Notes under the pieces: model-generated
The model's input: only the letters and a program-made list of their open reading frames with translations
Database searches by the model: none
Told to the model about the DNA's origin: nothing
NCBI GenBank assembly: GCA_030648055.1
Contig: JAUSHI010000002.1
Coordinates: forward strand, 178-64,177
Reading direction: 5' to 3'
DNA from: a bacterium
GTDB taxonomy: Bacteria; Patescibacteriota; Minisyncoccia; Sungbacterales; SURF-37
Length of the DNA stretch: 64,000 bases
Shown here: one piece after another, positions 2,957 to 56,304 of the stretch
Numbering within the stretch: position 1 is the first letter of the stretch
How the letters are laid out: each line of letters opens with the position of its first letter
Program-made: the position numbers and the translations under genes

Positions 2957-5900
2957 ATGAAGTTTTTTATTATAGTTTTAGCTGCAATTTTCTTGTTTTT
3001 ACCTTTTGGGGTATTTGCCTTATGTAGCTCCGACGGTTATACAATTGTATATATTAACGGCATTCGTACAAAGAGTATAGACGATGCAAACACCGACCTC
3101 AATGAGTTGCAAAGAAAATTTATAAAATATTCGTATTTAAATGGAGTCGTATTTCATACTGGTTACAATCCTTCGCACCTTGCCGGCGCGGGTGATCTAA
3201 TTGAGTCGGCATCTCAATTATTTGATTCTTCCGTAAGCGATTATGACTTCAAAAATATTCTTCTTCAGATATATCCGGAAGTGACGACACGGAAAATTCT
3301 TCTCGTGGGGCATTCGCAAGGAACTTTCTATGCTAATAAAATCCACGATTACCTTCTCGCGAACGGCGAAGAGAAAGGGGCGGTTGGTATATATAATGTT
3401 GCGACGCCAGATAGTTCTGTTGCGGGTTATGAAAATGTTCCAAGTCAAGGGGCATATCTTACTTCTCAAAACGATAAAGTTATCAATGCCGTGCGCGCAG
3501 TAGCTTTAAAAGTCGGAGCTAAGCAGCCACTTCCGGCGAACATTGATATCGCGCTTACTCCGCAGGAGGCTGCCGACCCTAATGGTGGCCATTCTTTTAG
3601 CGGTGTATATCTCTCTAACGCTCCGGTTCGCATGGTTTCTGAGATGGAAGACGCGCTTAACAAACTTAACGTATCGGAAGCTCAAGACATACAAGATGGC
3701 GTCGGTTGTTTTATTCCACCGCCGAAAAATTTTTCTTATCGTGTGCAACAAGGACTTTTTGCCGTTGCCGATCCTATGGCGAGCGGCGCAGTTTCTGCTT
3801 ATAATGCAGAGCAGGCCATGGGAACTGCTTTGGGTAACGCGCTTGCGGGCGCCGCGAAAGAAATAAAAAATACAGCAATGGTCCTTTTGGCGTTTAGACA
3901 AAACGCGCCGCAAGCCCCACAAACCGTTTTGCCAACAAGTTTGTCTCAAGTTATTTCAACGCCAGCTCCAAAGACTTCGCAAAAGGCAAACACCAACGAA
4001 ACCCAAATATTAGCGTCAGCGGAATCAATTACGGATAATGTCGGCGGTGCGTCAGATACGGTTTTTGAAAATAATGTTCCGGCGTTAACCCCTGATCCCG
4101 AAATCGCGAATAATCCATCACCGTCGGGTGGTGGTTCTTCCGGCGGTTTTCTTGGCAGTATTTCCGCTCCGGGAGCTGGGGCCGCGCCAGATCCGGTTAA
4201 TAGTTCTGTTTCAATTCAAGAAACATCCACTTCAACTCCGCCATCTCCACCGCCCCCTCCGCCTGCGGATACGGCCGCTCCGGATATTGCTTTTTCAATC
4301 AGTGAATGCGATTCGTCGCTTTCCAGCGATATATGTTTTTTAACTAATCCGGCACTGCATTTGTCGTGGTCGTCAAGCGCAAGTGATACAGATCACTTTG
4401 AAATTGTTTGTGAAGTAAACAGCTCGCCATGCGCGGGTCTTTCTTTTGCTCCGACCAGTGCTACATCAACAGAATATAGCGTGCCAACCGAAAAACAGAC
4501 ATACATTTTCAAAGCAAAAGCGGTTGATGTTACGGGTAATGCGAGTGTGGAAGTTATTCAGACAGTATCTTTCGCCGCAACGCCTGTTGTTATCAACGAA
4601 GTTGCTTGGATGGGAACCGGTTCTAGCGCGACCACAAACAAAGATGAATGGATTGAATTGTATAATTCCACTGATTACTCCGTAAATCTTTCCGGATTTT
4701 CAATTTTATTTTTAGCACCAGGAACAACAACTCCAGCGCAAACTATTTTGCTTACCAATACAATTCCCTCAAAAGGATTTTATTTGATTGAGCGCACAAA
4801 CGATACGGCGGTGTCGGATGTTGCCGCCGATCTTGTTTTTTCATTTGGCGCGAGTGGGCTTTTAAATAGCGGCATGATTTTGCGTCTTGAAAGAGGCGGG
4901 GCGATTATTGACCGTACGCCTGATCTCTGTAGTTCAGCATGGTGCGCCGGTTCATCATCAACATATCAGACAATGGAGCGGATTGGCCCCTTGGCGTCAG
5001 GTGATGGCGCGTCAAACTGGGGAACAGCTCTTAGTGAGTTTATTTTGAATGGCAAGAATGCCGACGGGCAAAATATTAAAGGTACGCCCAAAAAACGAAA
5101 CAGTAAAAATTATTTAATTAGTCAGACCGGCACGATTGTTCAAAATAAAACGCTTACAAAAGCCGATTCGCCGTATATTATTTTACAATCTGGCTTGACC
5201 GTACAATCGGGTGTTACGCTCACGATTGATCCTGGCGTGGTTATGAAATTTGTTGTGCCGAATGAGCCGGCATTAACAGTTAACGGCGCTATTAAATCAA
5301 ATGGAACCGCCGCGGAGCCGGTGGTGTTTACTACTTTTGCCGACGATATATACGGCGGCGATATGAATGCGGACGGTGTGTGTGATTTGGGGAACGCGTC
5401 TTCAACTGCTTCTTGTCCGGCAGTGGGAAGCTGGAAACAGATATTTATCAGCGCATTGAGCGTTGGTTCGGAGTTTCATAATACTATTGTTCGCTATGGC
5501 GGGAAGTGGTTTTCCAATATGACATTTCGCGGCATGGTGGATGTTGATTCAACGCCGGTGGTATTTGACGCGGCAACTTTTGAATACGCGGAACAATACG
5601 GGTTGCAGTTGAGCGCTTCCGACTCTCAGATACAGAACAGCGTTTTTCGTAACAATAATAAGTACAGTGATTCTATTGGGCTTTATGCTGTTGGCGGTTC
5701 GCCGGTTATTTCTCAAAATACTTTCCAGCAGAATAGAACCGGCCTTCAGCTTGTGGGCTCTTTGGCGACAGTAGGCGGCAATACTTTTACTGATAATAGT
5801 TCTTATGCTGTTTATTCATCGGGATTGGCCGGCATGTTTACACAAAACTCCGGTTCGGGTAACGGAAAAAATGGTATTTTGCTTTTTGGCCAGATTGTTG

Positions 5901-6538
5901 CTGTGGGGGCCACAACAACACTGGAAGCCAATTCCATTCCATATATAATTAGCAGTTCCGATGTAACTTTGCCTGGTGGCGCCGGATTAGTAGTGAATCC
6001 AGGAACTGAATTTAGGGGTGATTATGACGCGGCTTTAAACGTGAACGGAACGATGACTCTTGGCGGTGTTAATAAAAGCGATATAATTTTCACATCTCTT
6101 AGCGATTCTGCCTCGATATGGGGAGGGTGGAAAGGAATTTTAGTGAATGCCGGAGGATTTGTTTCCGGAGGAGGGTTTACTCTTCGTTATGGCGGCGGCT
6201 CTCCATCGGTTTGTCTTTCTTCTTGCGCCGGTTTCAGGATTAATGGCGGCAGAGTTGAGCTTACAAACGCATTGATTGAAAAAAATTATACGGCGGGAAT
6301 GAGGATTATTAACAGCGCTTCAACAACCCTTTCCAATTTTGAATTTAACCAGCACCGGACTCCGAGCGGCCAGTCTACCGGTTTAATCCTTTCAGGGTCC
6401 AGCATGGCTTTGGATAGCGCTTCATTTTCTGATAACGATTTCGGCATTTCTTCTAGCGCGTCTTCTATATCTTTGATGAATGCGCCGATTTTTATTAATA
6501 ATGGGGTTAACACATCTCCGGCGAATTTGTTTCCATAG
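2957..6538 (+). CDS. giant secreted multidomain protein: lipase-like alpha/beta hydrolase, Pro-rich linker, lamin-tail (LTD) domain, right-handed beta-helix repeats
   Basis: 1193 aa with a signal peptide. It has a nucleophile elbow LLVGHSQG and a PPSPPPPPP linker. The LTD signature is VVINEVAWMGT..DEWIELYN. Many NS/GG-rich parallel beta-helix-type repeats fill the C-terminal half. Confidence 0.85.
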   Translation: MKFFIIVLAAIFLFLPFGVFALCSSDGYTIVYINGIRTKSIDDANTDLNELQRKFIKYSYLNGVVFHTGYNPSHLAGAGDLIESASQLFDSSVSDYDFKNILLQIYPEVTTRKILLVGHSQGTFYANKIHDYLLANGEEKGAVGIYNVATPDSSVAGYENVPSQGAYLTSQNDKVINAVRAVALKVGAKQPLPANIDIALTPQEAADPNGGHSFSGVYLSNAPVRMVSEMEDALNKLNVSEAQDIQDGVGCFIPPPKNFSYRVQQGLFAVADPMASGAVSAYNAEQAMGTALGNALAGAAKEIKNTAMVLLAFRQNAPQAPQTVLPTSLSQVISTPAPKTSQKANTNETQILASAESITDNVGGASDTVFENNVPALTPDPEIANNPSPSGGGSSGGFLGSISAPGAGAAPDPVNSSVSIQETSTSTPPSPPPPPPADTAAPDIAFSISECDSSLSSDICFLTNPALHLSWSSSASDTDHFEIVCEVNSSPCAGLSFAPTSATSTEYSVPTEKQTYIFKAKAVDVTGNASVEVIQTVSFAATPVVINEVAWMGTGSSATTNKDEWIELYNSTDYSVNLSGFSILFLAPGTTTPAQTILLTNTIPSKGFYLIERTNDTAVSDVAADLVFSFGASGLLNSGMILRLERGGAIIDRTPDLCSSAWCAGSSSTYQTMERIGPLASGDGASNWGTALSEFILNGKNADGQNIKGTPKKRNSKNYLISQTGTIVQNKTLTKADSPYIILQSGLTVQSGVTLTIDPGVVMKFVVPNEPALTVNGAIKSNGTAAEPVVFTTFADDIYGGDMNADGVCDLGNASSTASCPAVGSWKQIFISALSVGSEFHNTIVRYGGKWFSNMTFRGMVDVDSTPVVFDAATFEYAEQYGLQLSASDSQIQNSVFRNNNKYSDSIGLYAVGGSPVISQNTFQQNRTGLQLVGSLATVGGNTFTDNSSYAVYSSGLAGMFTQNSGSGNGKNGILLFGQIVAVGATTTLEANSIPYIISSSDVTLPGGAGLVVNPGTEFRGDYDAALNVNGTMTLGGVNKSDIIFTSLSDSASIWGGWKGILVNAGGFVSGGGFTLRYGGGSPSVCLSSCAGFRINGGRVELTNALIEKNYTAGMRIINSASTTLSNFEFNQHRTPSGQSTGLILSGSSMALDSASFSDNDFGISSSASSISLMNAPIFINNGVNTSPANLFP

Positions 6539-6576: not shown

Positions 6577-6606
6577 CATTCTCAAATTCTTAAGAATTTG
6601 AGAATG
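6577..6606. repeat. palindrome family copy with different arms (cattctcaaattcttaagaatttgagaatg)
   Basis: Perfect 30-nt palindrome 39 nt after the stop of the giant ORF, followed by the same conserved tail at 6612-6639. Confidence 0.85.
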
Positions 6607-6657
6607 AATTTATTTGGGGTTTCTTGCGTTTAAGCGCGGTGTGATATAACAAAGGTA

Positions 6658-7746
6658 ATGCGGATTATTTTTCATATTGATATGGACGCGTTTTTTGCCT
6701 CCGTTGAGGAGCGGGATAAGCCATGGCTGAAGGGCAAGCCGGTTGTGGTGGGTGCGGATCCGAAGCACGGCAAAGGACGGGGCGTGGTTTCAACCGCGAA
6801 CTACAAAGCGCGGGAATATGGGATTCATTCGGCGCAACCAATATCGGTCGCGTGGAGGTTGTCGGAAAATGCGGTAAGAGAAGGAAAACCGCGGGTGTAT
6901 TTTTTGGGTGGCGATTTTCAGTCATACGGAAAAGCATCCGGCGAGATAATGGCGATATTGCGGAAGCACGGCGATAAAATAGAGCCGGCTTCAATTGATG
7001 AGGCGTATTTGGATGTAACAAGCGCGGAAAGTTTTGAGAAGGCAGAAAAGCTCGCGCAAAAAATTAAAAATGAAATAAAAAAGAAAGAGCGTCTTACCGC
7101 TTCAATCGGCATCGGCCCGAATAAGCTCATTGCCAAGATGGCCTCCGGAATGAATAAGCCCGACGGGCTTACGGTTATTCAGCCCGAAGACGTTCAAAAA
7201 TTTCTTGACTCGCAACCGGTTGAAGCAATTCCTGGTATTGGCCCTAAGAGCGGAAGAATTTTAAAATTTAAGGGCATTAAAACTATTGCCGACCTTCGTA
7301 AGATGGCGCGCGCCGAACTTATCAAAGCATTCGGTAAATGTGGCGAGGGGATGGCGGAGAGCGCGAGAGGGGTTGATGACAGCGCGGTGACCGAAGAGCG
7401 CGAAACGAAATCAATCGGCGAGCAGGAAACATTTGAAAAAGATACGCTCGATCCCGGCATACTAATAAAAGCACTTCAAGGTTTGGCTGAAAGCGTTTTT
7501 AATTCGGTGCAAAAGGGAAAATTAATTTTTAAAACCGTTTCTATTGCGGTGCGCTTTGAAGATTTTGAGACCAAAAGCCGCGCGCATACTCTCAAAAAGG
7601 CGATTAGCGATAACAAAACTTTTGAAGCCGAGGCGCTAAAATTATTTTTACCGTTTTTAGACAGGCGAGAAAACCCAAAAAAGAAATTAATCCGCCTTAT
7701 TGGCGTCAGAGCCGAACACCTTCAGCGCCAAGGCGAACTTTTTTGA
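6658..7746 (+). CDS. dinB: DNA polymerase IV (Y-family)
   Basis: MRIIFHIDMDAFFASVEERD...VSTANYKAREYGIHSAQP and the full-length 362-aa layout are typical of DinB. Confidence 0.9.
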   Translation: MRIIFHIDMDAFFASVEERDKPWLKGKPVVVGADPKHGKGRGVVSTANYKAREYGIHSAQPISVAWRLSENAVREGKPRVYFLGGDFQSYGKASGEIMAILRKHGDKIEPASIDEAYLDVTSAESFEKAEKLAQKIKNEIKKKERLTASIGIGPNKLIAKMASGMNKPDGLTVIQPEDVQKFLDSQPVEAIPGIGPKSGRILKFKGIKTIADLRKMARAELIKAFGKCGEGMAESARGVDDSAVTEERETKSIGEQETFEKDTLDPGILIKALQGLAESVFNSVQKGKLIFKTVSIAVRFEDFETKSRAHTLKKAISDNKTFEAEALKLFLPFLDRRENPKKKLIRLIGVRAEHLQRQGELF

Positions 7747-10566: not shown

Positions 10567-11052
10567 ATGAACGATATCGGTATAAATCAGCTTTTAAAAT
10601 TTTTTGCGGTGATTACGATTATCGCGGTTTTACTTGTGGCCGGAGTGTATTTCTTTTTGAGGTGGTCGGTTAATATAGAGCCCGCACCCGATAATTCCGG
10701 TAAGGCCCCTGCTCCGGCTACTGGTGGTATGGAGGTTAAGATCAAAAGTCCGGCGGAATCCGAATTGACGCCTCAAATATTTTATGACGGGACCGGTTTC
10801 CAGCCGGCGCGTGTTACGCGCGACGGCAGCGGAAGTATCGGGTGTCTGGCGGTACTGATAAATCGTTCATTGCGTTCGCTCTCGCTGGGTGTCGGGCAGA
10901 ATGAGGCGAAGCAGGGTTATGGTACGGTAGCCGCGGGAGAAAAATTTATTTTTGACCCCCGTTTCGTCGGCATAACGGAGCTTAGGATGTATAACTTAGA
11001 TAATCCAAAACAGGAATTTTTTATTGAGCTCGGCCCTAATTGCAGAATATAA
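10567..11052 (+). CDS. membrane-anchored hypothetical protein
   Basis: 161 aa with an N-terminal TM helix. Confidence 0.6.
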   Translation: MNDIGINQLLKFFAVITIIAVLLVAGVYFFLRWSVNIEPAPDNSGKAPAPATGGMEVKIKSPAESELTPQIFYDGTGFQPARVTRDGSGSIGCLAVLINRSLRSLSLGVGQNEAKQGYGTVAAGEKFIFDPRFVGITELRMYNLDNPKQEFFIELGPNCRI

Positions 11053-11063
11053 ATTAATGTATG

Positions 11064-11369
11064 CCACCCCTCCCCAGTTTTATAAAATATGTCACAGCGA
11101 GCCGCTTCGCCCGTGGTGGGAGGTGCTATTTCACAGGGTTTACTGCTGCGGGAGCGAGCTACGCTCGCTTCCTCGCAAAACCCGTGAAAAGCTATTTAAA
11201 CGCTTTTCACCACACGCGGCCCGCAGAATATAAACTTACACATTTCTCCTCCAAGTTTTGCCTGCTATGATGGTAAAACTGGAGAGGGATGCTCACGCTT
11301 GTAGTGAAATTTATTTCGCTACACGCTTATAAATTTCAACAAGCATGGCAAAGCGCAAAGAAAAAATAG
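11064..11369 (+). promoter_or_regulatory. structured repeat element A with mini-ORF (26 codons) upstream of and overlapping the ftsK start
   Basis: Arms CCCCTCCCCAGTTTTA (11067-11082) and TAAAACTGGAGAGGGA (11274-11289) are complementary at 14/16 and enclose several hairpins. The 3' box is GGAGAGGGATGCTCAC. The mini-ORF 11289-11369 (MLTLVVKFISL..) overlaps the ftsK ATG out of frame. Confidence 0.6.
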
Positions 11370-13513
11370 TGCGGACGGTGGTTGAAAAGGGCAGGCCGAA
11401 AAAACGATGGCATGATGATATTGACCCGCATACTAAAAAAAGCATTTTCGCAGTGTTGTTTTTCGTGCTGACCGGAATCACGCTTCTTGCTTATTGGGGG
11501 AGAGCTGGAGTTTTGGGTGTATATCTGTTTGACATCCTTGATTATCTTATAGGCCGGGCTTATTTTTTGGCCCCCATAACTTTTCTTTTGATAGCGTTTT
11601 CGCTTATTTTTTCTTTTCAGAGAAAATTTTTTGCGGCAACTTTTATTGGTGGGGCCATTTTTTTAGTTTCGTCTCTTGCGCTGATTGATCTTCTGTTGAA
11701 GAACCATACTGCTGGAGCCGTGGGTTATTTTACGAATTTGCCTCTTTTTAAAATTTTTGATTTCTGGGCAAGCATGGTTATTGAAGCCGGTCTTTTGGTT
11801 GTCGGATTTTTAATTACTTTAAACATCCCGCTTTTCAAGAAAAGTGCGAGCGAGGAAGCTAAGGATATTGAAACAAGGGGGGTTGTAAAAGAGGCGGCAG
11901 AGGGATTGAAAGATTTTGCCAGTCAGATGAAAAATGTTGCAACGGAAATGAAAGAAGGCCTTGCCGGCGGAAAAGGAGAGGGCGGCAATGTTGCGGCCAC
12001 AAGTGCTGTTACGGTGGATGCCGGACGCAAGGCGCCAAAATCGGAAGAGCAGGAGACGGAGTTTAAACAGAAAAAAATTAAATCCAATTATAAAAAGCCG
12101 CCGCTTGATCTTTTGAGTGACGACCGCGGAACGCCTTCTTCCGGCGACATTCGCGCCAACGCTAACATCATCAGGCGCACTCTTCAAAATTTCGGCATTG
12201 ATGTTGAGATGGGCGAAGTATCGGTCGGGCCGACAGTTACTCAATATACACTGAAGCCAGCCGAGGGCGTGAAGCTCTCTAGGATTGAGGCCTTACATAA
12301 AGATTTGTCTTTAGCGCTCGCCGCGCATCCCATAAGAATTGAAGCGCCGATTCCGGGTAAGTCGCTTGTTGGGATTGAAATACCGAATCGGTCTATTGCT
12401 CTTGTCGGGCTTAGGAGCTTATTTGAAAATTCTATTTATCAAGAATCTGAGGCCGCCCTTCTTTTTGCTTTGGGACGCGATGTCGCGGGGGCTCCGGTTT
12501 ACGCGAATCTTGCCAAGATGCCGCATCTTCTTGTGGCCGGCTCAACCGGTTCCGGAAAATCGGTTTCAATTCACTCTATCATGATTTCTTTTCTCTATCG
12601 GAATTCTCCGGAGATGCTTAAATTTTTGGTCATAGATCCCAAGCGGGTTGAACTCGCGTCCTATTCTGGAATTCCCCATCTTTTAACCGCGCCCATCACC
12701 GATTATAAAAAAGCTATTGCCGCGCTTCGTTGGGCGGTAAGAGAAATGGAACACCGCTATGAAATTTTAGCCGGCGTTGGCGCAAGAGACCTTGTCGGCT
12801 ACAACAATATTATTTCCGGTAAAAAATCCGGAGAAGAAGAGCTGATGCCTTATATTGTTATCGTCATTGATGAGCTGGCTGATTTAATGGTTTCTTTCCC
12901 GAGAGAGGTGGAGGGCTCAATTATACGTCTTGCGCAAATGGCCAGAGCCGTCGGCATTCATCTTATTGTGTCAACGCAAAGACCGTCGGTTGAGGTTATT
13001 ACCGGACTCATTAAGGCAAACATTACTTCGCGCATTGCTTTTCAGGTTGCCTCACAAGTTGATTCGCGCACTATTCTTGATATGGGGGGCGCGGAAAAAC
13101 TTCTTGGGAATGGCGACATGCTTTTTTTGGCGGGGGATACGGCCAAGCCGCGGAGAATCCAGGGGGCTTTTGTTTCGGAAGGAGAGGTGAAAAAAGCAGT
13201 GGAATTTTTGAAAGAGCAAATGGAGGAAGAAGCGTCTTCGGGGGAAGAGATTTTTGCAAATGAACGCGCGAGCGAGTTTGATTCTGACGGAATTGGCGGA
13301 GACGGCGATGACCCTCTTTATGAGGAGGCGCGTGAACTTATAATTGAAGCTGGCAAGGCATCGGCCTCATATCTTCAGCGGAGATTGAAAGTAGGATACG
13401 CTAGGGCCGCGCGGCTTCTGGATATGCTTGAAGAGCAGGGCGTTATCGGGCCGGGTGAGGGTGCAAAACCCAGAGAGATTTTAATAGGAAAAGAGAATCA
13501 AGATTCTATTTAA
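11345..13513 (+). CDS. ftsK: DNA translocase FtsK/SpoIIIE
   Basis: N-terminal TM helices. Walker A LVAGSTGSGKSV, IVIVIDELADLM, and a C-terminal gamma winged helix ASASYLQRRLKVGYARAARLLDMLEEQGVIG. Confidence 0.9.
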   Translation: MAKRKEKIVRTVVEKGRPKKRWHDDIDPHTKKSIFAVLFFVLTGITLLAYWGRAGVLGVYLFDILDYLIGRAYFLAPITFLLIAFSLIFSFQRKFFAATFIGGAIFLVSSLALIDLLLKNHTAGAVGYFTNLPLFKIFDFWASMVIEAGLLVVGFLITLNIPLFKKSASEEAKDIETRGVVKEAAEGLKDFASQMKNVATEMKEGLAGGKGEGGNVAATSAVTVDAGRKAPKSEEQETEFKQKKIKSNYKKPPLDLLSDDRGTPSSGDIRANANIIRRTLQNFGIDVEMGEVSVGPTVTQYTLKPAEGVKLSRIEALHKDLSLALAAHPIRIEAPIPGKSLVGIEIPNRSIALVGLRSLFENSIYQESEAALLFALGRDVAGAPVYANLAKMPHLLVAGSTGSGKSVSIHSIMISFLYRNSPEMLKFLVIDPKRVELASYSGIPHLLTAPITDYKKAIAALRWAVREMEHRYEILAGVGARDLVGYNNIISGKKSGEEELMPYIVIVIDELADLMVSFPREVEGSIIRLAQMARAVGIHLIVSTQRPSVEVITGLIKANITSRIAFQVASQVDSRTILDMGGAEKLLGNGDMLFLAGDTAKPRRIQGAFVSEGEVKKAVEFLKEQMEEEASSGEEIFANERASEFDSDGIGGDGDDPLYEEARELIIEAGKASASYLQRRLKVGYARAARLLDMLEEQGVIGPGEGAKPREILIGKENQDSI

Positions 13514-20318: not shown

Positions 20319-20331
20319 AGGTAAGGTATTT

Positions 20332-20521
20332 CATCCCCCGCCAATTTTGCGGGGCAGTACTGGGCGAAGCGCTTCGCCCATAAAGGGCCGCGCTATTTGC
20401 GCACGCGCTTCGCGAGAGTTATACATGGGCGCTCTCTCTAAACAATCAGCCAAATTTATTAAGGCAAAATTGGAGGGGGATGCTCATGATTGTAACTAAA
20501 TTTTATTCATTAATATTCTAA
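20332..20521 (+). promoter_or_regulatory. structured repeat element B with mini-ORF (13 codons) upstream of recA
   Basis: Arms CATCCCCCGCCAATTTTGC (20332-20350) and GCAAAATTGGAGGGGGATG (20464-20482) are complementary at 18/19. The inner perfect hairpin is GGGCGAAGCGCTTCGCCC. The mini-ORF 20480-20521 (MLMIVTKFYSLIF) ends 13 nt before the recA ATG. Confidence 0.6.
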
Positions 20522-20534
20522 AATTTAGACAATC

Positions 20535-21566
20535 ATGGCAAAAGAAGAAAAACAATCAAAAAGCAAAATACTTGAAGATACCGTTAAAGCGATTCAGGAA
20601 AGGTTTGGCGAGGGCGCGATAATGAAGCTTGGGGACGTGCGAAAGGTTGATGTGGACGTTATACCTACCGGCTCGCTTGCGCTGGATTTAGCGCTTGGTG
20701 TCGGCGGTATTCCCAGGGGGCGGGTAATTGAGATTTTTGGCCCCGAGGCCTCCGGGAAAACCACGCTTGCTTTGAACATTATCGCCCAAGCGCAGAAAAA
20801 GGGGGGGCTTGCCGCGTTCATTGACGCGGAGCACGCCCTTGACCCCGACTATGCCAAGCGCATCGGAGTAAAAGTGAACGACCTTTTGATTTCCCAGCCG
20901 GATACCGGCGAGCAGGCCCTTGAAATCGTTGATTCGCTTGTCCGTTCCGCCTCGGTTGATGTCGTGGTTATTGATTCCGTTGCGGCACTTACCCCCAAGG
21001 CTGAGATAGAGGGTGATATGGGTCAGGTGCATATAGGTCTTCAGGCGCGCTTGATGTCTCACGCCTTGCGCAAGCTCACCGCGAGTGTTGCTAAAACAAA
21101 AACTACTGTTATTTTTATTAATCAGATACGCATGCAAATTGGCATAATGTTTGGGAATCCGGAAACTACTCCAGGAGGCAAGGCGCTTAAATTTTATTCT
21201 TCGGTGAGAATTGAAGTGAGAAGAGCCGCGCAGATAAAGAAAGGCGAGGAAGTTATAGGCAACCGGGTTAACGCAAAAGTAGTCAAAAACAAAGTTGCGG
21301 CACCTTTCAGGAGGGCTGAATTTGATATTTTCTTTAATGAAGGTATCTCTCCCGAAGCGGAGCTTCTGACTCTTGGCGAAAAATATGCCATTGTAAAAAA
21401 ATCCGGCGCCTCGTTTACGTATGGCAACGTGCGGCTTGGCATGGGTTTTGACAATGCGAGAGTATTTCTTAAAGAAAATCCTAAAGTAGCGGAAGAGATC
21501 ACGAAAAAGATAAAGAGCGCGGCCTCGGGCGGAGAAGTAAAAGAAGTTAAAGAAAAGGAGGCATAG
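20535..21566 (+). CDS. recA: recombinase RecA
   Basis: [19 protein letters not shown] (Walker A), [10 protein letters not shown] and VVIDSVAAL, over the full 343 aa. Confidence 0.97.
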
Positions 21567-46288: not shown

Positions 46289-46432
46289 GTTGAGGTACGG
46301 CACTTCTTTTTAGTTTTACACCCGGTAGAACGGCGGCGCGATAGTATTTGAGGGTCTGGCTATTCGCCACCGCGCGCCGCACCATGGATTACTTAATTAA
46401 TGGCGATTCATTAGTTGTACAAAAGTAGTATA

Positions 46433-46516
46433 GTAAAATTGGGGGGGATGCTCATTTTTGTAGCTACTCGCCCCATTTATAAACAAAAATGGCAAAAGAT
46501 TATTACAAAATTTTAG
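46433..46516 (+). promoter_or_regulatory. repeat element C (right half only) with mini-ORF (22 codons) overlapping the dnaJ start
   Basis: GTAAAATTGGGGGGGATGCTCAT. The mini-ORF 46448-46516 (MLIFVATRPIY..) overlaps the dnaJ ATG out of frame. I found no matching left arm. Confidence 0.5.
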
Positions 46517-55422: not shown

Positions 55423-55450
55423 TTGACAAATTTTGTCAGTTTGCTATAAT
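55423..55450 (+). promoter_or_regulatory. near-consensus sigma-70 promoter with palindromic -35 region
   Basis: TTGACA-N16-TATAAT. TGACAAATTTTGTCA forms an imperfect palindrome over the -35 region. Confidence 0.65.
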
Positions 55451-55482
55451 GTGGTTAAAATTCGTAGCATTAGGAAGGGAGA

Positions 55483-55686
55483 GTGGAAACCGTGGAGTTG
55501 ACAATGGATGGTCATGTTGTCGGCGAGTGCGATGAGGACATTTTCGAGATCGTGGTGGCCTACTTGGCCGATGGGCGTTCGCAGGCAGATGTCGCCAAGG
55601 AGCTTCTGGCCTCCGGCGTTCCGCATGCGCTTGATGTTGTTGTGAACGCAAAGCGTGTGCTCAAGGAGCGCGGTATCCTGGTGTAA
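55483..55686 (+). CDS. small acidic hypothetical protein (67 aa), G+C-rich cassette gene 1
   Basis: GTG start preceded by AGGAAGGGAGA. High third-position G+C. Confidence 0.5.
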   Translation: METVELTMDGHVVGECDEDIFEIVVAYLADGRSQADVAKELLASGVPHALDVVVNAKRVLKERGILV

Positions 55687-55719
55687 CAACATCCACGCGA
55701 GAGAAAGGTGGTGAATGCC

Positions 55720-55929
55720 ATGCAGATTCGCAGACAGCTTCGTGCAAGTTCGGATGCGTTCGCCAAGGACCGCCGGCTCGCGGTGTGCCCCGAGGAGAAC
55801 ACGCACCGCGGACTCGGCAAGGTGTGCGGACTCGGGTACACTCATTCCAAGTATGTCCGCACGCGTTTCAAGTCCCGCGCGCGGCACCACGGGACGGCGC
55901 CACGCCACACCAAGAAGGGCGGCCAGTAG
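55720..55929 (+). CDS. small basic hypothetical protein (69 aa), G+C-rich cassette gene 2
   Basis: The ATG is preceded by AAAGGTGG. Of the three overlapping plus-strand frames, this one has the strong third-position G/C bias. Confidence 0.45.
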   Translation: MQIRRQLRASSDAFAKDRRLAVCPEENTHRGLGKVCGLGYTHSKYVRTRFKSRARHHGTAPRHTKKGGQ

Positions 55930-56304
55930 TCTGTCGCAAAAGGGGATCATGCACCCCCGGCGCTCAAAGACCAAACGGTCAATGAGCGTCATTTTTATTT
56001 ATTCGTCTAAATTTTTATAGAGTATCAAATATTCTTGTTGGTCTAATTCGCGCGAATAGTGGAATAAGACCGGATGTAAATAAAATTTAGCAACAAATAA
56101 ATAGCCCAGCCCTCTATGCTCTCAGAAATACCGCTAGTTTCTAAAAGCGCGTAAATATTTTTGCTATGTAATATTATATTGCAAACTGCTTAGAGGGCTG
56201 GGTGAACAACCGCGTATACCGCAAGCTTGTGTGATATCGCATCGCTTGCGGTGCAGTTGTTCATTGTTTCAAAAGATGTTATTTTTGTTAGGTACTCGCA
56301 ATTT

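Follow-up and report, generated by a model that had tools for sequence, protein, structure and literature searches.

What is the long inverted repeat that stands directly upstream of ftsK in this Sungbacterales genome? The window analysed here, the whole 64,000-nucleotide (nt) stretch at positions 178 to 64,177 of contig JAUSHI010000002.1 (assembly GCA_030648055.1), carries complementary arms in front of ftsK and again in front of recA. An earlier note on this DNA had read them as the ends of either a miniature inverted-repeat transposable element (MITE) or an RNA in which only the closing stem matters. Our favoured explanation, to which we give even chances, is that the region upstream of ftsK is a structured, transcribed 5'-leader cassette that would control access to the start codon and would have been inserted in a leaderless gene.

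The ftsK start codon lies in a covarying hairpin

The most conserved part of the element had been overlooked earlier. It comprises the 60 nt from the 3' arm to the ATG, which form a hairpin (stem B) that holds the ftsK start codon. Stem B has about 21 base pairs (bp), 11 in the lower stem and 10 in the upper one, with a conserved AG/AA bulge between them. At its foot, an anti-start box with the family consensus UGC(U)CAU pairs with the AUGGCA of the gene in 43–44 of 44 copies, and its one-base bulge is conserved. Across the 44 distinct copies, 97.1% of the alignment cells were paired, with 10 pairs and 108 cells changed on both sides. When the partners were slid by 1–3 columns, 33–48% were paired, and no shuffle attained the observed values. 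RNAalifold found the same stem B, including the pairing of UGC.CAU with AUGGCA. The 3' strand of stem B is independent evidence because the search pattern that retrieved the copies constrained the 5' strand only. The second codon of the gene is GCA in 43 of the 45 copies, which we attribute to the pairing with UGC.CAU.

Diverged copies changed both sides of this pairing together. In one of them (L004_4436), GG(U)CAU faces AUGCC, the Met-Pro start of an EPSP synthase; in others, GC(U)CAA faces UUGGC, GC(U)GAA faces UUCGC and AC(G)CAA faces UUGGU. The one-base bulge was kept in every diverged copy examined. As a general rule, the start codon appears to lie within stem B or at its foot.

A possible second partner for the anti-start box

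Could the anti-start box pair with anything other than the start codon? At the 5' end of the unit there is an AUGGC pseudo-start. At the foot of P1, the closing stem formed by the two arms, this sequence is complementary to the UGC(U)CAU box. In most copies this pseudo-start lies 3–10 nt after a –10-like hexamer. Its AUGGC is kept while the sixth base varies (GCA, GCU, GCG, GCC), and the five kept bases are those that pair with the box. At locus L033, the 5' end reads AUGAG, which is complementary to CUCAU and not identical to the real start, AUGAC. In our view the ATGGC repeat favours selection on RNA pairing, and an original duplication is still compatible with it. Furthermore, GCUCAU has a third perfect partner, AUGAGC, in the loop of many stem-B hairpins.

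The best supported model is a cis-acting leader in which closed and open pairings of the box would control initiation without a Shine–Dalgarno (SD) sequence. The leader would separate the –10 box from the start codon in a gene that relatives have in leaderless form. It would begin with the start-codon mimic AUGGC (AUGCC in the ftsK copy), with P1 closing around a variable interior. In the closed state, the box would pair with the real AUGGCA and bury the AUG; in the open state, it would pair with the 5' mimic as the bottom of P1 and free the AUG. Because the box has two alternative partners, the leader would set the accessibility of the start codon and hence the initiation of ftsK translation. 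In the ftsK copy, the mismatches of the 5' mimic would favour the closed form. In predicted folds, the initiation regions of ftsK and recA were the least accessible among 39 window genes (unpaired probabilities of 0.14 and 0.24), and the two leaders folded with z = −6.4 (ftsK) and z = −7.4 (recA). The recA start codon was likewise predicted to lie inside stem B.

Other readings of this module were tried and dropped. An alternative hairpin A (GTAGYGAA..TTCRCTAC), which would compete with the upper stem B, was indistinguishable from shuffles. A promoter within stem B (TTGTAG as –35 and TAAAAT/TATAAA as –10) would have spacers of 23–28 nt, the short stem-B type has no –10 box, and a scan for such a promoter returned one site, at chance level. 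In a strand test that compared G-U with A-C counts, the non-pairs were dominated by misaligned short forms.

One leader in front of many unrelated genes

How widespread is the element? The core common to the three copies of the window is GRGRGGGATGCTCAYNNTTGTAR, located 41–56 nt before ATGGCA. An exact-pattern scan for RGNGGGATGCTCAYNNTTGTAR, with one genome per species, returned 56 loci. In 42 of these, the full architecture was present, with ACAAnnATG (the complement of CATnnTTGT) following within 36–65 nt and starting an open reading frame (ORF). The other 14 (Oscillibacter and others) lie inside coding sequence without the partner and were discarded as chance matches. In all, we found the leader before about 45 genes on about 40 Parcubacteria contigs. 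The contigs of the 42 loci are labelled Jorgensen-, Sung-, Yanofsky-, Portnoy-, Harrison-, Lipton-, Wolfe- and Moranbacteria and Paceibacter, and genome CAZDKA01 alone has 9 exact matches and further ones found by a covariance model. Several metagenome-assembled genomes that carry the leader are evidently mislabelled; L009, L012, L016, L034 and L037 are among the contigs with this Parcubacteria leader. Titles such as "Saccharibacteria", "Gammaproteobacteria" and "Bdellovibrionales" are probably wrong for these contigs, one of which encodes an FtsK 71% identical to that of the window.

All 45 copies have the same orientation and stand directly before an ORF starting with ATGGCA. The ribosomal proteins encoded downstream include L27 (rpmA; 9 lineages), L11, L33, L32, S14, L22 and S5. 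The leader also precedes genes for GroEL, DnaJ, RecA, FtsZ, FtsK, GyrA, GreA, GatA/B and a UvrD-like helicase, as well as for an ABC-F protein, HtrA, an ECF sigma factor, SSB, EPSP synthase and peptidases; several of these genes were assigned from the N-terminal sequence, with Pfam run on a subset.

The order of the unit begins with a –10-like hexamer, 3–10 nt, (U)AUGGCN, a C-rich 5' arm and an interior of 2 to about 190 nt. It continues with a 3' arm ending in GGGA, UGC(U)CAU, nnUUGU, the AG bulge, the upper stem, the loop and ACAAnn-AUGGCA, where the gene starts. The mean column identity across copies is 66%. At least three unrelated interior classes occur on this one platform, and short forms lack the interior, so that the P1 loop has 2–3 nt (L006, L018, L021 and L045). 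A mirror-image variant was seen at L012 1216-1370, L035 2051-2109, L050 2801-2882 and L076 4261-4335. In this variant, a reverse-complement stem-B-like hairpin with a GGGTAAAGG box stands directly upstream of the 5' arm, which makes the unit symmetric and more transposon-like, and the real ATG comes after the helix, not inside it.

A precise cassette at ftsK, absent from most relatives

Is the leader an ancestral part of ftsK? Homologues of FtsK place the window in Candidatus Sungbacteria/Sungiibacteriota, within the Parcubacteria. Among 80 metagenomic ftsK loci (49–72% identity), none had the element before the gene. In most of the 13 loci at which the alignment reached residue 1, a –10 box lies 7–8 nt before the ATG, and the ftsK gene of those relatives appears to be leaderless. 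At the empty site L061, the sequence reads TATAAATTAAGGT/ATGGCGAGGCGC, that is, with the start ATGGCG; TATAAATTAAGGT stands 7 nt before the ATG there and also precedes the 5' pseudo-start in L004. The filled site of L004, whose FtsK is 71% identical to that of the window, reads TGTAAATTAAGGT/ATGGCA(TCCCGCC...GACAATT ATGGCA)CGTCGC, and that of the window TATAAATTAATGT/ATGCCA(...CAACAAGC ATGGCA)AAGCGC. Filled and empty sites agree base for base up to ATGGC. By this comparison, the promoter of a leaderless gene is separated from its start by precisely the cassette, which has ATGGC(A) at either border. The earlier note had regarded clean empty sites with a target-site duplication as a sign of a mobile MITE; such an ATGGC(A)-flanked pair of sites does exist, but the need to pair with the UGCUCAU box explains the repeat as well.

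In L002 (82%), the closest relative, neither ftsK nor recA has the element. The ftsK junction there, TATAAA-C-ATG, resembles the scar of a deletion in which the element left its final base behind. The relative L003 (69%) also lacks it at ftsK. Two observations concern the same relatives: at L003 1925-1975, in a Sungbacteria relative, three tandem TAATCCGCGT repeats stand upstream of ftsK instead of the leader, and at L002 5895-5930 recA, which lacks the element there, has a TTGTAAGTTGTAAGTTACAA palindrome just before its start.

The 3' module of the window ftsK copy is not nearest to that of L004, and the L004 copy resembles another leader of its own genome. Similarly, members of a recA-type subfamily, 90–96% identical, precede recA, an ECF sigma factor gene, an AAA_33 protein gene and an amidohydrolase gene. 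These relationships, together with the absences, indicate that leaders were gained, lost and copied between genes. The ftsK copy itself is a lineage-specific, partly eroded acquisition and not a conserved ftsK regulator.

The interior is a covarying domain with one insertion

The earlier note had described 16-nt arms (11067-11082 and 11274-11289, 14 of 16 positions complementary), and these arms hold and extend to 18 nt with 16 complementary positions. The inner hairpins that it listed are also present, GGGAGCGAGC/GCTCGCTTCC at 11150-11172, GTGAAAAGC/GCTTTTCAC at 11184-11210 and GGGTTT/AAACCC at 11136-11183. It was right that the element is a second copy of the recA leader element, where the arms were found again, and that the arms form a closing stem, which covaries between copies. 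On the other hand, the ftsK interior is not unrelated sequence, as had been thought. It aligns over its full length with the recA and dnaJ copies and with 14 copies of other genomes, and the difference comes down to a single 75-nt insertion. Nor is it only the closing stem that matters: the interior is a covarying three-way junction, and the best-conserved module is the start-codon hairpin downstream of the arms.

The ftsK interior consists of a common class of about 112 nt (105–116 nt in 15 other long-form copies) and the 75-nt block, which is the sole large gap in alignment A3; among 140 loci, the lone other match to the block was on a contig of the same genome. Over the 17 long-form copies, the combined structure of P1, the interior helix S1, two hairpins and stem B reached 91.4% pairing, and both partners had changed in 21 pairs. 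For P1, which has 22–23 bp with a conserved 1×1 mismatch and whose 5' arm was assessed by duplex folding, the pairing was 90.9%, and 6 pairs had changed on both sides. S1 was 95.3% paired and had compensatory changes in 5 of its 9 pairs. One small hairpin was weak, at 68% paired. The window also has a 12-nt repeat, GCAGAATATAAA, at 11042-11053 and 11223-11234. The segment CGCAGAATATAA follows S1 in L042 as well, and the repeat may be explained in part by a CGC-A/G-rich-TATA segment that is conserved after S1 in other copies.

Three copies in the window

The covariance model of the 3' module (R1) found exactly three copies in the 64 kb, at recA, ftsK and dnaJ (85.7, 82.5 and 52.9 bits). The next match in the window, at 23 bits, is the reverse strand of the recA hairpin. 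The ftsK copy (11280-11352, E = 7e-16) departs from the consensus in having 5' AUGCC for AUGGC and CAC for CAU in the box, and it appears to be the largest and a somewhat eroded member of the family. Between the ftsK and recA arms, three base pairs differ on both sides. In the dnaJ copy, the 5' arm (46298-46320) is U-rich (CUUCUUUUUAGUUUUAC) and the G-run of the 3' arm is paired mainly through G-U, which makes sense only as sense-strand RNA. The coordinates of these features are collected in Table 1.

Table 1. Features of the ftsK leader and of the related copies in the window.
Feature	Coordinates	Strand	Remarks
Intergenic region	11053-11344	+	upstream neighbour, 161-aa ORF (10567-11052), function not assigned; downstream, ftsK
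–10-like box TATAAA	11048-11053	+	putative promoter element; overlaps the stop codon of the 161-aa ORF
5' pseudo-start ATGCCA	11061-11066	+	predicted 5' transcript end; family consensus ATGGCN
P1 5' arm CACCCCTCCCCAGTTTTA	11065-11082	+	inverted repeat, 16/18 complementary
Interior helix S1, 5' strand GCGAGCCGC	11097-11105	+	followed by conserved TTCGCCC; alignment A3
Interior hairpin GTG-CTATTT-CAC	11123-11134	+	conserved UAUU(U/C) loop; 4/4 pairs changed on both sides, 17 copies
75-nt insertion, nested hairpins	11136-11210	+	GGGTTT..AAACCC around GGGAGCGAGC-TAC-GCTCGCTTCC, then GTGAAAAGC..GCTTTTCAC
Interior helix S1, 3' strand GCGGCCCGC	11216-11224	+	followed by conserved CGCAGAATATAA segment, 11223-11234
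Proximal second 5'-arm-like sequence CTCCTCCAAGTTTTGCC	11246-11262	+	can replace the distal arm in pairing with the 3' arm
P1 3' arm TAAAACTGGAGAGGGATG	11274-11291	+	partner of the 5' arm; 191 nt between arms
26-codon mini-ORF	11289-11369	+	incidental
Anti-start box TGCTCAC	11290-11296	+	family consensus UGC(U)CAU; pairs with gene AUGGCA
Stem B, bulged hairpin	11290-11350	+	3' base is the ftsK start; R1 model, family covariation, RNAalifold
Stem B, lower stem	11290-11302 with 11339-11350
Stem B, upper stem	11305-11314 with 11329-11338
ftsK, 722 aa, start ATGGCA	11345-13513	+	Pfam FtsK_SpoIIIE, FtsK_alpha, FtsK_gamma
recA copy	20328-20542	+	P1 arms 20332-20349 and 20466-20483; interior 112 nt; R1 model 85.7 bits
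dnaJ copy	46298-46496	+	111-nt interior; short stem B; R1 model 52.9 bits; before a dnaJ-like gene; copy also recorded at 46439-46496

Taken alone, the arm pair at ftsK is modestly unusual (3 matches against 0.45 expected, with 1 of 100 shuffles reaching 3), and we regard the evidence from the family, not the arm statistics, as decisive for the element being real. With the ftsK 3' arm, the proximal arm gives a duplex of −25.3 kcal/mol and the distal arm one of −24.0 kcal/mol, and the minimum-free-energy fold of the leader uses the proximal arm. No site resembling a terminator was present. The TATAAA box was not called by the consensus promoter scan, and its assignment as a promoter element is our own proposal. 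At the starts of 43 ORFs in the window (for example, those at 10567, 41591, 52247 and 61819), most genes have no SD, and several have a –10-like hexamer 5–8 nt before the ATG. This suggests that leaderless or SD-independent initiation is widespread in the host organism.

Two further structures of the window were recorded. A perfect palindrome, CATTCTCAAATTCTTAAGAATTTGAGAATG, lies at 6577-6607 between the ORF at 2957-6538 and a dinB-like DNA polymerase IV gene (6658-7746); it may act as a terminator or operator and does not belong to the leader family. At 56000-56099 on the minus strand, upstream of the ORF at 55444-55992, there is a stem-B-like hairpin (TTTGTTGCTAAATTTTA ... TAAAAATTTAGACGAA) without the GGGATGCTCAT box. 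It scores 18 bits (E = 0.07) in the model and may be a relic of the leader or a distant variant.

Weighing the explanations

Several observations count against a leader that controls start-codon access. We infer the transcription start, the RNA states, the two-state switch and the effect on translation. The downstream genes are heterogeneous (ribosomal proteins, chaperones, DNA repair, peptidases, a sigma factor) and hint at no signal to which the leader would respond. The patchy occupancy at ftsK (2 of about 85 loci) would be expected of a selfish insertion no less than of a regulator. The 5' mimic is absent in the recA copy (ATTTCA) and reads AUGCC in the ftsK copy, so that the fit to two states is uneven; for the dnaJ copy, an open start is predicted. 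The true AUG of four diverged copies comes 0–7 nt after the helix, and sequestration of the AUG is thus not universal. Finally, the invariance of GGGATGCTCA in the 45 copies is partly a matter of ascertainment, as it was the search pattern.

Could the element then be selfish? A MITE- or REP-like (repetitive extragenic palindromic) element, selfish or formerly mobile, would insert at the starts of leaderless genes that begin with ATGGC(A), duplicate this target and be tolerated as a compact RNA that leaves expression possible, without any dedicated regulatory role. The precise filled and empty sites at ftsK speak for it, as do the low occupancy there, the absence at both ftsK and recA of the closest relative, the window and L004 copies that are not mutual nearest relatives, the nearly identical subfamily before four different genes, and the mirror-image variants with a stem-B-like hairpin at both ends. 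However, a classical MITE has terminal repeats at both ends and many near-identical copies in any orientation or position, and here the left arm is terminal after ATGGCA but the right arm is set back about 55 nt from the end of the unit. All 45 copies agree in orientation and in distance to the start codon, and the copies are few (3 in 64 kb) and diverged. Compensatory changes maintain the stems, including the G-U pairs of the dnaJ copy, and the 5' repeat keeps exactly its five box-pairing bases, even at L033, where it differs from the real start. The leader is also present at rpmA in 9 lineages. The two alternatives of the earlier note, mobile element and structured RNA, thus each capture a part; what looks most apt is an insertion-like cassette under selection for RNA structure, and we consider the purely selfish reading unlikely, although it deserves real weight. 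The same stems might instead mark a site of RNA processing, with an RNase III-type cut near the AG bulge or the foot of stem B that would leave an mRNA with a leader of 0–7 nt, leaderless or nearly so, as suits translation of the leaderless type. The two-part stem B and the long P1 with its conserved mismatch would suit such an enzyme, the bulges are conserved even in diverged copies, the placement of the AUG, either within the helix or immediately 3' of its foot, is more in keeping with a positional signal than with occlusion, and the host genes are otherwise leaderless. Early mRNAs of phage T7 and the adhE leader are processed by RNase III. On the other hand, the stems of the short forms have just 8–15 bp, and after a cut inside stem B the AUG would still be covered by the lower stem, now an intermolecular duplex. 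RNase III is among the ribonucleases discussed for this group in a 2025 survey of ribosome biogenesis factors (PMC12641178). We rate processing as unlikely, although the conserved bulged helices leave as much room for it as for the switch.

Is there a ligand? An aptamer closed by a P1 that overlaps the expression platform is the standard layout of a translational riboswitch. The interior of about 112 nt (P1, S1 and the UAUUC-loop hairpin) would be the aptamer, and its ligand would stabilise P1 and the pairing of mimic and box, thereby opening the start. The covarying three-way junction, the conserved loop and junction nucleotides and the overlap of the P1 3' strand with the platform were all found. 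However, an aptamer is not common to all members, many copies having no interior and at least three unrelated interior classes sharing one platform; the genes share no pathway; Rfam returned no match; and the ftsK copy tolerates its 75-nt insertion beside a conserved hairpin. We regard a riboswitch as improbable. RNA thermometers (ROSE, fourU), in which a short, imperfect helix over the SD or AUG melts at physiological temperatures, offer another comparison: in the leaders the AUG is paired, but within helices of 21–23 bp with GC-rich cores and in folds of −86 to −112 kcal/mol. Control by a leader peptide, an upstream ORF (uORF), would have a ribosome translate the mini-ORF from the ATG of GGGATGCTCA, melt stem B and couple to ftsK. 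The mini-ORF is as the earlier note described it, with 26 codons and a stop that ends 25 nt inside ftsK in another frame, and in the window copies the mini-ATG follows a GGAG at a distance of 4 nt, the N-termini resemble one another (ML[MTI][ILF]V..) and all three ORFs end near the gene start. Across the 45 copies, however, the mini-ORF shows no conservation: relative to the gene, all three frames (0, 1 and 2) occur, the stop falls −27 to +2172 nt from the gene ATG, with in-frame fusion to the gene in several copies, GGCGGG, TAGAGC or TGAAGC stands in place of the GGAG in many, and diverged copies have GTG for the ATG. The anti-start box and stem B, through their conserved nucleotides, fully account for the similarity of the peptides. 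Nor was a uORF that begins at the 5' ATG conserved, its stops being scattered across the copies. Refuted at the comparative level, leader-peptide control is very improbable, and the mini-ORF is incidental, outside the mechanism. Still harder to credit is a DNA operator for a stress regulator (a LexA/SOS box or an HrcA/CIRCE-like palindrome), which was suggested by the palindromic sequences and by three window genes that are classical SOS or heat-shock genes (recA, ftsK, dnaJ). The family also precedes genes for L27, L11, L33, S14, L22, FtsZ, GyrA, GatB, EPSP synthase and peptidases, its half-sites covary rather than being conserved, the arm spacing ranges from 2 to about 190 nt, and dinB of the window has no copy. 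An SOS, CIRCE or sigma-32 reading of GGGATGCTCA..TTGTAG was likewise dropped on the list of downstream genes.

The leader that controls start-codon access also admits a bolder variant, to which we lend little credence. By analogy with shunting, the 5' AUGGC might be a leaderless ribosome-loading site from which the ribosome would be passed to the real AUGGCA across the folded cassette of 60–300 nt, with P1 and stem B bringing the real start close to the 5' end in space.

Relation to known systems

Does the cassette correspond to anything described? With Rfam 15, only tRNAs scored at the gathering threshold (window and 10 further loci), and nothing credible was found at E <= 10 on either leader. 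A literature search in open-access papers, which included the motif string and leaders of Parcubacteria and the candidate phyla radiation (CPR), found no description of the element. The family thus appears to be undescribed.

In the cassette, features of a structured translational leader are joined to those of a palindromic insertion that is co-transcribed; both kinds are known. With riboswitches, ribosomal-protein leaders, the A and B forms of lambda cIII mRNA and the fold-back inhibition of IS10, it shares a covarying structure in the 5' untranslated region, a start embedded in a helix, a switching segment (UGCUCAU) with two partners and a P1 that encloses a structured domain. Unlike these translational leaders, it pairs the AUG and the second codon instead of an SD, in host genomes that are mostly SD-less, and one platform stands before dozens of unrelated genes, with an optional interior of several classes. 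Its competitor is a start-codon mimic at the very 5' end, and it has no Rfam family.

Co-transcribed MITEs (Correia/NEMIS of Neisseria, ERIC/IRU, RUP and BOX) resemble it in their length of 100–300 bp, their inverted arms, their non-coding nature, their insertion polymorphism between relatives and the short direct repeats at their borders. Such elements form hairpins in mRNA that can be targets of RNase III. The cassette differs from them in its single orientation and position, ending at a start codon, in its internal right arm, in its low copy number and high divergence, in its covarying three-way junction and in being kept at rpmA across class-level lineages. With REP sequences and bacterial interspersed mosaic elements (GTAG tag, RAYT transposases), it shares GC-rich palindromes and a conserved (T)GTAG, which starts the upper stem B; in contrast to these, it is neither extragenic or 3' of genes nor high-copy, and its GTAG lies inside a longer asymmetric unit.

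The likeness to ribosome shunting (the 35S leader of cauliflower mosaic virus) and bypassing (T4 gene 60) is a purely structural analogy. It consists in the identical take-off and landing AUGGCA joined by stable helices, and in a 5'-terminal AUG in an organism that apparently uses leaderless initiation. The gaps of the cassette are 60–300 nt, compared with 50 nt in gene 60, and the third base of the 5' codon varies. The unusual features of the family are the paired start codon itself, the 5' start mimic, the modular interiors and the spread over the starts of leaderless genes.

Implications for Parcubacteria

What would such a leader mean for its hosts? To our knowledge, Parcubacteria and other CPR bacteria are uncultured, with tiny genomes and few known regulators, and the control of their gene expression is almost undescribed. 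If ribosomes were indeed handed over across the cassette, bacteria would have their own form of ribosome shunting or bypassing, spread by a mobile leader cassette over leaderless Parcubacteria genes, and these regulator-poor cells would gain a genome-wide point of post-transcriptional control. The covariation is sufficient for an Rfam entry and for use in annotation, and the family constitutes a natural experiment on the insertion of a leader into a leaderless gene. One leader in front of ribosomal-protein, chaperone, cell-division and DNA-repair genes in many candidate phyla would amount to a major unrecognised layer of post-transcriptional control or mRNA processing, which would act in organisms that apparently translate mostly leaderless or SD-less messages.

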